Virus record (IMG/VR): IMGVR_UViG_3300009149_000014
Location: 32,001 to 96,000 of that record
Reading direction: 5' to 3' (one strand)
Source: a virus
DNA length: 64,000 nucleotides
In this document: piece after piece, positions 8,500 to 33,051 of the stretch
Layout of the letters: every line of letters begins with the position of its first letter
Numbering within the stretch: position 1 is the first letter of the stretch
Notes under the pieces: model-generated
Told to the model about the DNA's origin: nothing
Seen by the model: only the letters and a program-made list of their open reading frames with translations
Databases searched by the model: none
Program-made: the position numbers and the translations under genes

Positions 8500-9271
8500 T
8501 GTCAAAACATTTCGTCTTAAAGACTTCCGGAGTCGTCGTATCGATGTGACACATATCAATTGTGGTCTGACTAACAGTTATAAGCCCGGCCACCGTGAAT
8601 CCGATTTCTTTCCAGGTTATGCTAGCTATAATTCAATTTTATTCGAAAGCAGTTGTATCTTAACAATATGGGAGCACATGAATGAGCTTTTTGATGATTC
8701 CCCCATTATGATCTTGCATACCGACATCACACCATTGTTTCGCGTAGCCGATACTCTCGACTATTTGGAACAATTCGATTCATTTGCTTGTGGACTCACC
8801 GTGCCGAGTTATCATGCTAATGATTACGATCAATTGGTAATTGAAGACACTGATAAATATCGATGCAGTGTCGATCCTTGGCAAGTCATGAAATTCGACG
8901 GTGTTGTGGATATCTGGGATCTAATTCGTGTGATCGATCCTGAAGCTTGGGAATTCGGCATGGACACCGATCCGATTATGATCTATTCTCACCAATTCGT
9001 TGCATCCAAGGACATTTTCAACAAGCTTGGTTACAAATTGTGCCAATTGGTCACACAATTGAAACTGGGACAATGTGGTCTTTGGACACCACATGTTTTC
9101 GAACGCATCATTGCCCTCCGTCTCGCCATGGAAACTGAACCGAGGCTCCTCGCAGCCTTTAGTCATCAGAGTTCGTCCGGACCTAAAGGAGACGGTGCTT
9201 TGACTTTATACGGCCCAAGGCCGCACAAATACTTGCGTCTCAAGTCAAGAGTATTAGATCCAATCGATTAA
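8468..9271 (+). CDS. hypothetical protein, possibly GT-A-like glycan biosynthesis enzyme
   Basis: LHTDI and PHVFERII motifs; position within the glycosyltransferase cluster. Confidence 0.5.
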   Translation: MNCVFLHHQNSVKTFRLKDFRSRRIDVTHINCGLTNSYKPGHRESDFFPGYASYNSILFESSCILTIWEHMNELFDDSPIMILHTDITPLFRVADTLDYLEQFDSFACGLTVPSYHANDYDQLVIEDTDKYRCSVDPWQVMKFDGVVDIWDLIRVIDPEAWEFGMDTDPIMIYSHQFVASKDIFNKLGYKLCQLVTQLKLGQCGLWTPHVFERIIALRLAMETEPRLLAAFSHQSSSGPKGDGALTLYGPRPHKYLRLKSRVLDPID

Positions 9272-9471
9272 GAATTGTGCAACATCGTTACGATTGCACA
9301 TAATGCCGGATCGGCTTCTTCGAAATTATCGCTTGCCACAAGCCCGGTTTCGACGTCAAGAGAATGCTCAATTATTGCTTGGTCGAAGATAGTGATACAT
9401 TCTACTTTAACAACATTCTTTAATGAGCTGCTGCTTGACAATAGATCACTCGATGCTCTTAGTTCTTCCAT
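9268..9471 (-). CDS. hypothetical protein (67 aa)
   Basis: GGAGG SD 5 nt before ATG 9471; stop shares TTAA with the convergent gene. Confidence 0.6.
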   Translation of the reverse strand: MEELRASSDLLSSSSSLKNVVKVECITIFDQAIIEHSLDVETGLVASDNFEEADPALCAIVTMLHNS

Positions 9472-9519
9472 CAGTTCCTCCAATTTATGTAGCTAATTCA
9501 CGTCGTATTGTAAGGGCAT

Positions 9520-9640
9520 AGTGAGGAAGTTCAGGGTCGCACGCAGGGGCACCCTGACCGGCATAGTTTAATTCAGAATCTACTCTTGAAATACAGAGTA
9601 AGGTCCAGGTGACTTAATCCTGGTGTCGGCCTCACTTTTT
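9520..9640 (+). ncRNA. structured tRNA-like non-coding RNA (aberrant cloverleaf within a three-way junction)
   Basis: Helices AGTGAGG/CCTCACT, TCAGGGT/ACCCTGA, CCGGCA/TGTCGG, GTTT/GAAT, TACTCT/AGAGTA, CCAGG/CCTGG; upstream TATTGT and a 3' T-run; no ORF here. Confidence 0.7.
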
Positions 9641-9726
9641 ACACGTGACAATCGGTAATTAACAAAAATCCGCCTGATGCAACACTCAGTAGACGGACAC
9701 AATAACCGAATTTGGGAAAGCTACCA

Positions 9727-11763
9727 ATGACTGCAATTGATGATCTAAGACAAAAAATCGACGAAGCCGCTTCTGCCTATTACAATCGCGGTGTTTCAAT
9801 CGTCAGCGATGATGAATTCGACACAATGCTCGACATGCTGCGACGTCTTGACCATAAAGACGAACGTCTCACCCGAATTGGTTTTGAGCCAACTCTCGAA
9901 AAGGTGGAACATGCTCATCCAATGGGTTCGCTCGATAACATCGATGCCAATAAACCAAATGAGCTTCAGACCTACATTAAGCGTAACAAAGATTACACTC
10001 TTGCTGATTCGCTTTATCACGTTACTCCCAAGATCGACGGATCATCGATCGCGTTGACCTACAAGGGTGGAGTGTTGACCCAAGTGCTAACCCGTGGCAA
10101 TGGCGAAGTGGGTCAAGATATCACAGCTAAAGCATCATTTTTCAAAGGTGTGCCGACCAAGCTACCAGAACCAGTGGATATTACCGTCCGTGGTGAAGCA
10201 GTTATGCACCGGGACGTTTTCATCAAGTATATTGAGTCCGCTCAACTCGAAGGTGTGCGAAATCCGCGAAACGTCGGCAATGGAATTATCGTCCGAAAAG
10301 ACGCCTGCGGAGCCGGGTTGATCAATTTCTATTCTTTCAATGTCGAATCGGACACGCCAATTAAGATCTTGGATTCGGTTCATCGGTGCTACCAGTTCTT
10401 GCAAGAAATGGGTTTCACTACGCCGGATTATCAAATTGTTGCAGCTGATGGGATCACCACACTGGTCGATACGATGATCCAACGTGATTATCCTTTCGAT
10501 ATCGATGGCCTCGTGATCCGTGTTGACGATATGCGACAACGCGAAATCATCAACGAAGGTGGCGACGATCTTCGTCCCCGCAGTGACCAAGCGATCAAGT
10601 TCAACAGCAAGAAAGCTGAGACTACCATTACTGGTGTCACTGTGACTGTCGGTTCAACTGGCAAGATCACACCGACATTGACTGTTGAACCGGTCGAAAT
10701 TGGTGGGATTGTCAATAGCAATGTTTTGATCTACAATTATGATGAACCAGAACGATTGAAGATTGGTATTGGCGATAAGATTCGTGTAGTCCTTGCTGGG
10801 GATATTATCCCCAAGGTCTTGTGCGTGGTCGATAAGGCTAGTCCGCCGACTGTAATCACTGCTCCCAAGACTTGCCCATCGTGTGACCATCCGATTTCTC
10901 GCAAGCAATTGTTGAAGGGCGAATCGGTCGATTTGTATTGCACGAACCAAAAATGCCCCGGTATTCAATTTGAGAAGATCCAAGGGTTTATTGGTTCATC
11001 CAAAAGAGGAATGGGGATTCTTGGGATCGGTGAGCATTTGATCAACCATTTGATCACTTCTGGCCATGTCAAGAGTATTCCAGATCTCTATGATCTAACC
11101 GAAGATCAACTTCGAATCATGTCGCTTGGTAATGGTGTTGTTGGTGCCAAACGTGCCAAGACGATCGTTAACAACATTCAAGAATCCAAGGGGTTCACTG
11201 TTCAAAAAGTGGTGGGATCTCTTGGGATTGATGGTCTTGGCGAGCATCGTGCCGAGATCATGATGGAAGTCGCCGATGGCGGTTTGGCTACTCTTGATGA
11301 TTGGATTGCTTGTGCTAATGGTTCAGAATTGATTCTGAATTTGAAGCATCCCCATTTGCCCGCTAATGTCATGGCATCTGTTCAAAGCCAATTGGTCGCT
11401 ATGAAGGATGATTTGCTACGCTTGCGTGAGCTTGGCGTTGGTGTTCATGTGGCTCCGGTTGTAACTGAGGATGGTGGTCCGAAGCCTTTTGCTGGTAAGA
11501 CGTTTTGTTTTACTGGTACACGAATCCATTTGGATATCGTCGAGAAGCTTGGGGGTGAGGTTAAAAGTGGTGTGAGTAAGACTCTTGATTTTCTGGTCCA
11601 GCGTGATAAGTCAGAGCGTACGTCGAAGGCGAAAAAGGCTGAGGCTTATGGGACTACTGTGATTGGTGTTCCTGAGCTTGAGACGATGATTAAGGAGGCT
11701 GATCCTACGATTCTTGGGACGGCTTCGTCTGGTTTGGCTGCTGTTTTTGAAATGCTTGATTAA
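9727..11763 (+). CDS. ligA: NAD-dependent DNA ligase
   Basis: VSDDEFD, HPMGSLDN, PKIDG active site, TRGNGEVGQDIT, VRGE, NPRN, DIDGLV, AGDIIPKV, C4 zinc finger, HhH motifs, C-terminal BRCT (FCFTG). Confidence 0.97.
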   Translation: MTAIDDLRQKIDEAASAYYNRGVSIVSDDEFDTMLDMLRRLDHKDERLTRIGFEPTLEKVEHAHPMGSLDNIDANKPNELQTYIKRNKDYTLADSLYHVTPKIDGSSIALTYKGGVLTQVLTRGNGEVGQDITAKASFFKGVPTKLPEPVDITVRGEAVMHRDVFIKYIESAQLEGVRNPRNVGNGIIVRKDACGAGLINFYSFNVESDTPIKILDSVHRCYQFLQEMGFTTPDYQIVAADGITTLVDTMIQRDYPFDIDGLVIRVDDMRQREIINEGGDDLRPRSDQAIKFNSKKAETTITGVTVTVGSTGKITPTLTVEPVEIGGIVNSNVLIYNYDEPERLKIGIGDKIRVVLAGDIIPKVLCVVDKASPPTVITAPKTCPSCDHPISRKQLLKGESVDLYCTNQKCPGIQFEKIQGFIGSSKRGMGILGIGEHLINHLITSGHVKSIPDLYDLTEDQLRIMSLGNGVVGAKRAKTIVNNIQESKGFTVQKVVGSLGIDGLGEHRAEIMMEVADGGLATLDDWIACANGSELILNLKHPHLPANVMASVQSQLVAMKDDLLRLRELGVGVHVAPVVTEDGGPKPFAGKTFCFTGTRIHLDIVEKLGGEVKSGVSKTLDFLVQRDKSERTSKAKKAEAYGTTVIGVPELETMIKEADPTILGTASSGLAAVFEMLD

Positions 11764-14168: not shown

Positions 14169-15518
14169 ATGCCAAAGAAGTCTCGTCTTGATAAACGACT
14201 AGTATACAGCACTATCAAGAAACATAAAGGCAACATGTCCAGAGCAGCGGAAGAATTGGGTATTGCCCGTTCTACTTTGTTGCACAGATATCGCAGCCTT
14301 GAATCTGGAACAGCTCTTGATTCCAATGAACACTCCGACGAAGTGTTAACGACTCTGAAAGAATCTGATTCCGAACAGATCTCTTATTCATCTAAGAACG
14401 AAAACGAACTCGATTTTGTTTGTTTGATGCGTAAGAAAGTCTCAGCCGATGAGATCGCCAAGCAAGCCGGGTACGACTTGCGACAATGGCGAGTTACTGA
14501 AGTAAAAATCAACCAATGGCAAGTTGCCGGTAAGAAAAAGAACGGCCAAGAAGAAGGAACAAAACGATGGCTTGCGGAAGACCTATGGAAAGAACAACTC
14601 TACCAAATCAAATTCAAGCTCGAACGCAGAGCACCCAAGTTTGTCCAAGACGGCGTAACCGCATTAATGGAAAACTGGACTGGAGCCCAGAAGGTTCCAA
14701 AGATCGAGCGTCGAGCAACGATGGCAAAGCCGCATTTGCTCGAAATCAGCCTGTTCGACGCCCACTTTGGCAAATTGGCTTGGGCCGAAGAGACTGGTGA
14801 AGATTATAATCTGAAGATAGCTGAAAACATCTATTTGAATGCAGTAGATGATCTCATCGATCGTACATCCGTTTTTGATGTTGAACGAATTGTTTATCCA
14901 ATCGGCCAAGATTTCTTTAATGTCGATAATTGGAAGGGTGAAACTTCCAATGGCACATTGGTCGAATCAACAGATGATCGATTTACTAAAATCTTCACAG
15001 TTGGTGTCGAATCTATTAAATGGTCGATGATGAGGTGCCGAGAAATCGCACCAGTTCATATCATTTGGTCTCCCGGCAACCACGATCGATCGACCTCTTG
15101 GTACCTTTGCAAAGCGATCCAACAATATTGTGAAGGTGCCGGAATCACCGATGTCACTTTCGACCTTGGGCCGAACCAACGTAAGTACGAGCTTTTCGGT
15201 AACACTCTTCTTGGTTTCACCCATGCCTGTGATGAAAGGATGGCCGATCTTCCACTCATCATGGCTAAAGAAGAGAAGCATCTTTGGGCTCAAGCTGACT
15301 ATCACCAGTGGCACGTTGGTCACTTCCATCGTAAGAAAGAAATGCGATTCATTGCCGGTGACACCTTTAATGGTGTATCGGTAACGATCCTCCCGAGTCT
15401 TACTGCGACCGATTCTTACCATTATCGAAATGGTTGGGTCTGCCCTAGTAGAGCAGCTGAGGCTTACCTTTGGTCCAAGGATAAAGGATTGTCCAACTTC
15501 ATGGTCCACAGCCTCTAA
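14169..15518 (+). CDS. Fis-type HTH plus calcineurin-like metallophosphoesterase
   Basis: KGNMSRAAEELGIARSTLLHR (HTH_8); DAHFG, GQDFFNVD, PGNHD, FTH, GHFH. Confidence 0.85.
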   Translation: MPKKSRLDKRLVYSTIKKHKGNMSRAAEELGIARSTLLHRYRSLESGTALDSNEHSDEVLTTLKESDSEQISYSSKNENELDFVCLMRKKVSADEIAKQAGYDLRQWRVTEVKINQWQVAGKKKNGQEEGTKRWLAEDLWKEQLYQIKFKLERRAPKFVQDGVTALMENWTGAQKVPKIERRATMAKPHLLEISLFDAHFGKLAWAEETGEDYNLKIAENIYLNAVDDLIDRTSVFDVERIVYPIGQDFFNVDNWKGETSNGTLVESTDDRFTKIFTVGVESIKWSMMRCREIAPVHIIWSPGNHDRSTSWYLCKAIQQYCEGAGITDVTFDLGPNQRKYELFGNTLLGFTHACDERMADLPLIMAKEEKHLWAQADYHQWHVGHFHRKKEMRFIAGDTFNGVSVTILPSLTATDSYHYRNGWVCPSRAAEAYLWSKDKGLSNFMVHSL

Positions 15519-32000: not shown

Positions 32001-33051
32001 TGGTGCTGCTGTTGCCCCATTGATTTTGGCAGGGGCTGGGCTTTACATGTTCGCTCAGGGGCTCGAAGCTTTGCAGGGGCTTGAGGTTCCTGATATTGGT
32101 CCTAAATTAATTGTGATGGCTGGAAGTCTTTCTAGTGCTGCGGTGATTTTGGGTCCTGCGGTGATTATGTTATCAGCAGCTGGTGTGGGTCTTTGGGTGT
32201 TCGCTCAAGGATTGAAGCAGTTGCAGGGTCTTGAATTGGAGGGCGTTGGGGACGATATTCTTTCTATTGCGATTGGTGTTGGTGCTGCCGCTTATATTCT
32301 TGGTCCTGCTGCTGGTTTGTTGACTGTTGCTAGTGTTGGGTTGGCTGCTGCTGGTGTTGCTTTGGGTGCTGCTGGTATTTCTATTACGGTTGGTGCGATT
32401 TCTCTTGGGTTTGCCACTAGTTTCTTGAATTCGGCTATTGATAATCTTGATGAGTCAGCTGATGTAATGGAGAGATTTACTTCTGCAGCTGAACGGTTTA
32501 ATGCTTTGAGTTTTAGTGCTTTGAGTGGTAGTGTGAGAGATCTGGGTAATGTGGCTAATAATATGGTTCATTACCTGCGTTCATTAACTTCAGCTGCTGA
32601 AGAAATGAACGATACTCAAATTGATGCAAAGGATCTTGCTGCGAGTATTTCTGAGGCCGCTATTTTGTTAGATGTTGCTGCTCAATCGTTGGCTAATCCA
32701 ACTCGAACTTTAACTACTCAAATCAATGGTATTGTCGAACAAGTAGAACGTTTGATCGCGGCTGAAGCTCAGATTCGAGAAATTGGTGGTGAGATTTCTG
32801 ATGTTGTTCAACAGCCTCGTGAAGAGGCTCAACAGCCGAATGAAATGAGAGTTGTCGAAAAAGTCACTGAAGCTGTTAATGCTTTGGTCGAAGTTAAACA
32901 AGACAATAGTGAAATGGTTGCTCTGCTTGCTAGATTAGTCGAGTTGATGGAGAAACAAGCTAATAATCAAAATCGAGAAGGTTTCTTTCAAAATGAAGCT
33001 GGTGAGCAACCAAGCGGCAAGAAATTCCATGAAGCTGGAGTCAAAATGTGA
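29059..33051 (+). CDS. tape measure protein
   Basis: ~1330 aa, helical Ala/Gly-rich, long hydrophobic region and internal repeats, upstream of baseplate genes. Confidence 0.88.
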   Translation: MAFDPNLYAIQIALSIDAGEAFKTVSDLEGRVNSIEDAFSKAMTQTLGHVATVTSEINSQLEGMTGLVTDINAQYAVQFDQISDTLNRELEQVNNIERIQEIEEELYDLRQEMFESLQEFRLINEQLVVLFENQRVTTTGLSDVYDEMLDQLEEMGVDTDNIRKSLAGSINQARAFRTEFQDILRTIQQSATAMYANATAMAEITKMTERFVTANYRAYGTQHQLMEAVTDTASEFGVLHDATAEAYEQLMGIRVPIELLEQYAGMVTQTSRISGAGTRQLADYTRTMAGSGLEAGDTAYVLSTLTAAQEQFGLTTDEVNKILAENLEKLGMMTTIYGSDIPRDMAIAQAAFAGLIKQTGASAQAGNKLNEMLYATGQEAIILRAKLGAAFNDDTASRFDVINDKFGDMGKQLYEAQVRSKQTGESIDGLVIALGAQAKAMGGSYEMVDMYARAIRDAGGDLNAAVKPFAEYERQIGAAQDRQRQFTQSINTLYFSVQSLTASLFALVQPVIQFIARGMIPLIQIATFVVDSFVSIIDVFTGTWTALEGLIPPLAWVRQGLEMLVAAGILLGPVIGGLIGLFSAAAGMVGLFAGSLAAIGTIFSQFTGLVQAGLANLGQLFISFMTTIGTGLARLGSAVAPVMLPLLALGGALLMVGASAYLFAQATVMIAQEGWAAVGVMFGLVAAIGLLGLALVGLGMLAQGPVALGLLAVGAALLMVGGAVYLVGAGIGLAANGMAALVAAVPPDIGVRFVSLAAGLTALSLSAWIITPGLLVLGVGLAAIAIPAYVAGIGLTSLASAMESLQDITFPDIGGKMLLFALDLAAGALILGAALIPLTIAGAGLYMFAQGLQALQGFEVPDLGGKLIIMAGSLVIGAYLLGAAIAPLIIAGAGLWAFAQGLKQMQGLEVPDIGPKLIVMAGSLALGAYLLGAAVWPLIIAGAGLYAFATGLQQLQGLEVPDLGGKLIVMAGSLALGAYLLGAAVAPLILAGAGLYMFAQGLEALQGLEVPDIGPKLIVMAGSLSSAAVILGPAVIMLSAAGVGLWVFAQGLKQLQGLELEGVGDDILSIAIGVGAAAYILGPAAGLLTVASVGLAAAGVALGAAGISITVGAISLGFATSFLNSAIDNLDESADVMERFTSAAERFNALSFSALSGSVRDLGNVANNMVHYLRSLTSAAEEMNDTQIDAKDLAASISEAAILLDVAAQSLANPTRTLTTQINGIVEQVERLIAAEAQIREIGGEISDVVQQPREEAQQPNEMRVVEKVTEAVNALVEVKQDNSEMVALLARLVELMEKQANNQNREGFFQNEAGEQPSGKKFHEAGVKM
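31489..32330 (+). repeat. 150-bp (50-aa) tandem repeat in tape measure gene, about 5.5 copies
   Basis: PD(I/L)G(G/P)K begins at 31489, 31639, 31789, 31939, 32089; degenerate copy at 32239. Confidence 0.9.

Follow-up and report, generated by a model that had tools for sequence, protein, structure and literature searches.

The locus and the parts of the element

The DNA examined here (the window: 64,000 nucleotides, corresponding to positions 32,001 to 96,000 of the IMG/VR virus record IMGVR_UViG_3300009149_000014) was taken from a 116-kb record that is estimated to be approximately 32% complete, and that is 94% coding according to a crude map of its open reading frames (ORFs). Within the window, glycosyltransferase genes are followed by an ORF on the minus strand, a 48-nt spacer, an element of approximately 117 nt on the plus strand (9520-9636), a further 90 nt, and then the genes for a DNA ligase (ligA) and a GDP-mannose dehydratase. 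The element comprises six helices: a closing helix (P1), a side hairpin (P2), and a four-way junction that resembles a cloverleaf (P3 to P6). Every stem that had been listed in an initial inspection of the letters alone (hereafter, the sequence-only reading) was found in the window, as were the hexamer TATTGT upstream of P1 and the T-run behind it to which that reading had also drawn attention. The corresponding features are collected in Table 1.

Table 1. The element, its helices and its nearest neighbours in the window
Feature	Positions	Strand	Description
Small divergent acidic ORF (P0001)	9268-9471	-	67 aa; GGAGGA ribosome-binding site
-10-like hexamer, TATTGT	9506-9511	+	8 nt before P1; putative promoter element
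P1, 5' strand, AGUGAGG	9520-9526	+	Pairs with 9630-9636 (7 bp); 5 of 7 pairs changed on both sides across lineages
J1/2 linker, AAGU	9527-9530	+	Invariant; the same in 5 of 5 aligned sequences
P2 hairpin	9531-9557	+	7-bp stem (9531-9537/9551-9557) plus apical region; 4 stem pairs covary
P3, 5' strand, CCGGCA (acceptor-like)	9558-9563	+	6 bp; directly after P2, no linker
P4, D-like arm	9566-9579	+	4-bp stem (9566-9569/9576-9579); 6-nt loop AAYNCA, no GG
P5, 'anticodon'-like arm	9581-9600	+	6-bp stem (9581-9586/9595-9600); 8-nt loop in the window; 3 pairs covary
P6, T-like arm	9605-9623	+	5-bp stem (9605-9609/9619-9623); 9-nt loop in the window; 2 pairs covary
P3, 3' strand, UGUCGG	9624-9629	+	Partner of 9558-9563; continues into the P1 3' strand without a linker
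P1, 3' strand, CCUCACU	9630-9636	+	Pairs with 9520-9526
U-run	9636-9640	+	Directly after P1; not called by the terminator scan
ligA, NAD-dependent DNA ligase	9727-11763	+	Pfam adenylation, OB, zinc-finger and BRCT domains; PHROG 3869, E 4e-132

The arrangement of these parts is such that P1 and P3 have one uninterrupted 3' strand in common, with P2 inserted into the 5' strand behind the AAGU linker. The minimum-free-energy fold of the plus strand (-41.7 kcal/mol) contains P1, P2, P3, P5 and P6, and its z-score ranges from -2.6 to -3.0, as compared to a value of -2.2 for the minus strand; because this score is modest, folding energy alone constitutes weak evidence.

Distribution among related phages

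Four sequence lineages from a clade of uncultured phages (with LigA proteins that are 54-70% identical) carry the element, as does one additional contig variant that is 93% identical to the window. Protein searches placed members of the LigA clade in metagenomes at 49-70% identity, and pattern-based locus searches that proceeded from a LigA alignment (A1) yielded three lineages beyond that of the window. In the first of these (L002, L003, L004, L014 and L019, with L005 as a one-nucleotide variant; LigA 68-69%), a small gene on the minus strand precedes the element, and the ATG of ligA is located 21 nt after P1. In the second (L016; LigA 62%), a similarly placed minus-strand gene and the element are followed by a gene of the DUF5662 family (181 aa) with an ATG 20 nt after P1, and then by a gene of 212 aa that belongs to no known family; both of these genes (L016:657-1895) sit between the element and ligA. 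In the third (L013; LigA 54%), the element is found within a row of co-directional genes, where its P1 helix overlaps the stop codon of an epimerase-like gene that it follows immediately, and the ATG of ligA is located 29 nt after P1. This last copy forms an island of higher GC content (0.50, versus 0.23-0.30 upstream) in AT-rich surroundings.

The small ORF on the minus strand, at 65-67 aa, recurs in the window, at L016:272-475 (-) and at L002:2618-2815 (-), and is thus conserved in three lineages out of four; beside the element in L013 it is absent. Its product could be assigned to neither a Pfam nor a PHROG family, and the Atlas offered no neighbour of use. The variant contig (X7), which comes from another public run, is 356 nt in length and matches positions 9346-9701 of the window, and two further contigs (both termed X3) lie on either side of the element, the ends of which they overlap. 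The known occurrences thus amount to five IMG/VR contigs (including the source record itself) and another two contigs from metagenomes, together with fragments from at least two public runs, with a single copy of the element on each contig.

Searches beyond these sequences returned little. A scan of approximately 450 kb of unrelated or more distant ligA loci with model R1 produced no significant match (best E 0.48). Three DNA patterns drawn from the conserved core of the element recovered only the same four contigs from IMG/VR, a pattern of the T-like arm by itself recovered none, and a search of IMG/VR for close relatives that used only LigA as its query found nothing. Three pattern matches in GTDB genomes were rejected as chance, the best of them scoring 16.6 bits. 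Blastn searches of the GenBank phages returned no match and thus no close relative, and no cultured phage carries a LigA protein above 31% identity. The element family is rare and known only from metagenomes, with no cultured host. A further relative of the clade (L104, IMGVR_UViG_3300035698_017588; 95 kb) was recognized through an upstream 267-aa gene at 75% identity, and its contig stops inside that gene, before the position of the element.

Variation within a constant fold

Each helix of the element varies in sequence among the lineages. The stem of P2, which reads UCAGGGU/ACCCUGA in the window and ACAAGCU/AGCUUGU in L013, covaries freely, while its apical region keeps an invariant internal loop (CGYAC...GGGGC) in all lineages. 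The invariant unpaired nucleotides are concentrated in that loop and in J1/2, and are to be regarded as weakly sampled, since they are drawn from only four lineages of one clade. In P3, the L013 sequence replaces a C-G pair with U-A and a G-U pair with G-C. All four pairs of P4 vary and yet stay paired, two of them through changes on both sides and two through one-sided changes, and one pair appears as G-U, G-C and A-U. The loop of P5 holds the sequence GAAA in every lineage, at lengths of 8, 9, 6 and 6 nt across the four, and takes the form of a GAAA tetraloop closed by a G-C pair in L013 and L016. The loop of P6 measures 9, 9, 6 and 7 nt across the same lineages, and in none of them contains the sequence UUCRA. 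Dimerisation through the P2 loop was considered on account of short palindromes in three of the four lineages (UACGUA, CUAG and CGCG), and was discarded: the window contains none, and their frequency is at about the level of chance.

Evidence for a selected RNA structure

The homologs from the four lineages each fold, on their own, into the same six-helix architecture, with z-scores of -2.5 to -3.9. When applied to a MAFFT alignment (A3), RNAalifold returned six helices with a total of 38 pairs, and compensatory changes are displayed by 15 of these pairs. In a five-sequence alignment (A4), 98.4% of the pair cells are paired and 17 of the 38 pairs have changed on both sides, with at least one such pair in each helix; none of 500 shuffles attained the observed values, and slid registers pair at only 36-44%. 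Alignment A4 was fitted to a model and leans towards structure, and the MAFFT alignment gives similar counts. A sequence that was left out of model building (L016) scores 101 bits.

Additional changes were contributed by the contig variants. In X7, the substitutions A9524G and T9632C convert an A-U pair of P1 to G-C, which constitutes an extra compensatory change, and three others (C9633T, T9579C, which turns a G-U pair of P4 into G-C, and A9582G) are changes to or from G-U that keep every pair; the substitution C9635T in X3 likewise preserves its pair in P1. These observations, taken from comparisons of related uncultured phages, strongly support the conclusion that positions 9520-9636 of the plus strand correspond to a structured RNA under selection, the shape of which has been maintained by compensatory changes. 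The sequence-only reading had proposed a selected RNA as opposed to a decayed tRNA, and had suggested that P1, P2 and the cloverleaf be examined for covariation in homologs upstream of ligA; compensatory changes are indeed found in all six helices, P1 and P2 included, both by RNAalifold and in the pair counts from A4.

The same comparisons bear upon the notion that there is no RNA at all, and that the locus represents either an origin or protein-binding site that acts as DNA, or a decaying tRNA pseudogene in which the fold is a chance remnant. The modest z-score of a single sequence (-2.6) would be compatible with such an explanation. Against it stand the retention of all six helices in the face of two-sided change, the presence of a GNRA-type loop, and the behavior of P1 and P2, which lie outside of the cloverleaf and covary as strongly as the remaining helices. 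Non-canonical cells are furthermore distributed asymmetrically between the strands (14 G.U cells versus 3 A.C cells), which indicates that the selected molecule is the RNA of the plus strand, and makes a double-stranded DNA element unlikely. A DNA site or tRNA relic is thus judged to be very improbable.

Flanking signals and transcription through the element

In all four lineages the next gene starts 20-90 nt downstream of the element, on the same strand. A -10-like hexamer is found at the same 8-nt distance from P1 in every lineage, as TATTGT in L002, TGTTAT in L016 and TTAAAT in L013, and as TATTAT in X7 (by way of G9510A). No -35 element accompanies the hexamer, and a consensus scan for sigma-70 promoters and terminators calls nothing at the element. 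A phage-wide promoter motif was likewise not obtained from recurrences of the 25-nt block that is conserved upstream, from enrichment of intergenic k-mers, or from the T4-type sequence TATAAATA. On the other side of the element, a run of four to five U residues comes after P1 in the window, in L002 and in L016 (as UUUU in the latter two), and is absent in the fourth lineage, L013; X7 has no listed change at that position.

The spacers that separate P1 from the start codon are rich in A and U, and their folding reveals no structure, no expression platform and no alternative pairing. That of the window (9637-9726) contains approximately 65 extra bases relative to L002, and an imperfect hairpin within it (at about 9669-9696) is no better than those in shuffled sequences (z -0.3). 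The spacers of L002 and L016 (21 and 20 nt) are too short to house a separate promoter, so that the genes downstream would be transcribed through the element. It can be firmly inferred from this placement that the element is transcribed at least as part of the leader of the ligA-unit mRNA. The suggestion in the sequence-only reading of a stand-alone gene for a non-coding RNA therefore stands in respect of the structured RNA, and gives way in respect of its independence, given the start codons that closely follow P1 in L002 and L016 and the overlap with a stop codon in L013. Since the next gene in L016 encodes a DUF5662 protein and not LigA, a signal that is specific to the ligase is not implied, and the gene that is directly served by the element is not fixed.

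Resemblance to tRNA and its limits

The search program ARAGORN, at its default setting, finds neither a tRNA nor a tmRNA when applied to the window, to the 116-kb record as a whole, or to any of the four homologs, and reports none at the locus when its threshold is lowered to 80%. At a threshold of 70%, the inner cloverleaf is picked in two of the four homologs, as compared to 16 matches in 200 shuffled sequences, a result that represents a sub-threshold likeness of shape. Searches against Rfam 15, with its tRNA, YrlA and tmRNA models included, yield no match at E<=10 that coincides with the element (in slices of 601, 141 and 136 nt), and across the 64-kb window no family attains its gathering score.

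When compared directly with tRNA (RF00005), the element displays several points of agreement. The linkers of its four-way junction measure 2, 1 (1-2), 4-5 and 0 nt, as in a class I tRNA; its D-like stem is 4 bp and its T-like stem 5 bp in length; and positions that resemble U8, A14, the A15/U48 pair and A21 are kept in four of four lineages. The differences are more extensive. The acceptor-like helix P3 contains 6 bp and not 7, and its strands run into P2 and P1 without a linker, such that there is no free NCCA end or discriminator nucleotide. The D-like loop (AAYNCA) lacks G18 and G19, the loop of P6 lacks UUCRA, and that of P5, at 6-9 nt and with its GAAA, is not a 7-nt anticodon loop. Finally, the element carries an extra hairpin, P2. 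The element is not a tRNA, and its resemblance to one, as judged from the aligned sequences, is confined to the spacers of the junction and to a core of U8-, A14-, A15/U48- and A21-like positions; it is a resemblance of shape only.

The broken hallmarks of tRNA that the sequence-only reading had listed (the sizes of the loops, the missing GG, and the lack of a free NCCA end) are thus borne out. Its description of a tRNA cloverleaf holds for the spacing of the junction and the core positions, and fails for the 'anticodon' and T loops. Of the roles that it had offered, that of a decoy for anticodon nucleases, or of any tRNA mimic that depends upon the elbow, is unlikely, because the P5 loop bears GAAA, the P5 and P6 loops vary in length, and UUCRA is missing. 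A gene for a CCA-adding enzyme was not found on the 116-kb contig, which covers approximately 32% of the genome. As a separate matter, the complete lack of tRNA and tmRNA genes from this record (ARAGORN, default setting), together with the lack of any Rfam family at gathering score in the window, is unusual for a phage that is estimated at several hundred kilobases, of which about a third is in hand.

The likeness of shape does furnish an argument for a stable, tRNA-shaped non-coding RNA that would act in trans, having been freed by termination at P1 and the U-run or cut from a leader. The four-way junction of such an RNA would bind a host or phage protein that recognizes tRNA, and would thereby function as a scaffold, a sponge, or a decoy against defences that target tRNA. 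In accord with this possibility are the class I spacers and conserved core positions described above, the inner cloverleaves picked at the 70% threshold, the -10-like hexamer before P1 and the U-run behind it, and the precedent of tRNA-shaped phage RNAs such as YrlA (PMC4201824). Several observations nevertheless oppose it. The default ARAGORN search gives no score, and the 141-nt slice gives no Rfam match at E<=10; the tRNA elbow is not conserved, given the lack of GG in the D loop and a T loop that is variable in both length and sequence; the 'anticodon' loop is built on GAAA, and the 3' end of the would-be acceptor is buried in P1. The downstream genes of L002 and L016, moreover, must be read through the element, and the contig, at about 32% of the genome, contains neither a Ro/TROVE gene nor one for a CCA-adding enzyme. 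On balance, an RNA that acts in trans appears rather unlikely.

Comparison with other classes of RNA

The YrlA RNAs offer a precedent for a tRNA-shaped module in an RNA that does not decode. They carry the motif GNCGAAN0-1G, and their T arm, which is tRNA-like, becomes modified; their genes have a Ro60/TROVE gene as a same-strand neighbour, at a distance of no more than approximately 4 kb, and occur in some phages as well; and the ends of the RNA exit by way of the position of the anticodon stem (PMC4201824). The element, in contrast, lacks the GNCGAAN0-1G motif and any Rfam match, and its ends exit on the acceptor side, such that its topology is unlike that of YrlA, as the sequence-only reading had noted. 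No Ro/TROVE gene (PF05731) was found on the 116-kb contig (approximately 32% of the genome), and the alternative of a Y-RNA-like scaffold, which that reading had entertained, is weakened accordingly. Nor is the element a recognizable tmRNA, none being detected by the ARAGORN tmRNA search or by Rfam.

Among RNAs that act in cis, the put elements of phage HK022 are described as suppressing pausing and termination by contacting RNA polymerase (PMC9378689). These nascent antiterminator RNAs, putL and putR, would share with the element the property of a folded, phage-encoded RNA that opens a long operon and exerts its effect in cis upon the complex transcribing it; this is a likeness of placement only, and the element differs in being a six-helix domain. 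Riboswitch aptamers resemble it in their leader position, their closing P1 helix, their conserved unpaired nucleotides in junctions and loops, and a GNRA-type loop suited to tertiary contact. The element, however, matches no Rfam riboswitch and has no separate expression platform, the gene downstream of it is not constant, and no ligand can be inferred. An intrinsic terminator would consist of a short GC-rich hairpin with a loop of 3-8 nt, followed by a U tract, whereas P1 and the U-run enclose a structured 'loop' of 100 nt; a scan of positions 9250-9800 for intrinsic terminators called none.

A catalogue of structured RNAs in viruses lists 10,006 candidates (PMC10690425), and the literature yielded nothing specific to the element. 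On the strength of these sequence searches, and in particular the lack of a match in Rfam 15 or in the GenBank phages, the element appears to represent a previously uncatalogued RNA family.

A possible role as a cis-acting leader

Action in cis of one kind or another is judged to have a slightly better than even likelihood, and the reading that we tentatively favour, at somewhat less than even likelihood, is that of a cis-acting leader RNA for the unit that contains ligA, as suggested by its placement and conservation. Rightward transcription would begin, probably, from the -10-like element, and would place the RNA at the 5' end of the message as its leader. The folded domain would then act in cis on the ligA unit, possibly by binding a factor at the invariant region formed by J1/2 and P2. 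Closure of P1 would take place beside the U-tract and the unstructured, A/U-rich spacer that would accommodate ribosome binding, and may set how much transcription or translation reaches the genes that lie downstream, in the manner of an attenuator-type leader. Variants of this cis action might include a put-like effect on RNA polymerase (PMC9378689) or protection of the 5' end.

The specific version in which the domain, folded and perhaps bound to a factor, brings about closure of P1 up against both the U tract and the spacer for ribosome binding is possible, if well short of an even chance. Counting against it are the 7-bp P1 helix that closes a domain of 100 nt, which is atypical of an intrinsic terminator, and the missing U-run in L013. 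Counting against the cis-acting leader more generally, neither the folding of the spacers nor the consensus scan points to a separate expression platform, an alternative pairing, or a terminator-like site.

The element might instead be passive, serving either as a folded 5' cap that guards the mRNA against decay that depends upon the 5' end, or as a tRNA-like site for RNase P or RNase E at which the transcript of the upstream glycan genes would be parted from that of ligA. The first of these agrees with the start of P1 at 0-2 nt from the predicted 5' end, if the -10-like hexamer is used; the second agrees with the position of the L013 copy between two co-directional genes, and with the tRNA-like shape of the junction. 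A protective hairpin would nonetheless have no need of as many as six helices, nor of invariant loops and a GAAA that is conserved. For an RNase P site, P3 is one pair short of the usual 7 bp, P2 abuts P3 such that no free 5' leader exists, and the canonical T loop that is recognized by RNase P is missing. A passive role is accordingly thought to be improbable.

Beyond these readings, the element may belong to a new class of phage RNA that senses a factor, a speculative proposal that draws only on placement and conservation and to which we assign a low probability. In one version, it may act as a riboswitch-like leader for a metabolite that is tied to the downstream genes for the NAD-dependent ligase and for sugar-nucleotide metabolism, such as NAD+ or a nucleotide. 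In a second version, it may contact LigA or RNA polymerase through the nick-like stack of P1 on P3 and the invariant P2 loop. In a third, a tRNA-shaped RNA released from the leader may soak up a host defence protein that is directed against tRNA.

The build of the element is unusual, in that a cloverleaf-shaped junction is sealed within a three-way junction; within a clade of large, uncultured phages, this RNA heads the unit that contains the DNA ligase gene. Were it found to sense a ligand or protein, it would constitute a new class of phage regulatory RNA; were it found to be released, it would mimic tRNA in a new way. In either case, the element is a short RNA that can be synthesised, and for which clear mutational predictions can be made. 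Some caution is in order, since candidate structured RNAs of viruses have already been listed in their thousands (PMC10690425).

Neighbouring genes

Two further observations concern the genes that accompany the element. The ligA gene of the window is intact, and in its closest relatives (L002:3001-6049, as well as L003, L004, L014 and L019) it is split into two ORFs, one of which, at 398 aa, holds the adenylation and OB domains, and the other, at 324 aa, the zinc finger and BRCT domains. Between them, on the opposite strand, is a gene resembling a homing endonuclease of the LAGLIDADG_2 family, 266 aa in length and with an N-terminal HTH (L002:4181-4981). Farther along the same rightward row of genes in the window (14169-15518, plus strand) is encoded a protein of 449 aa with an N-terminal Fis-type HTH_8 domain, which is possibly a phage regulator of transcription.
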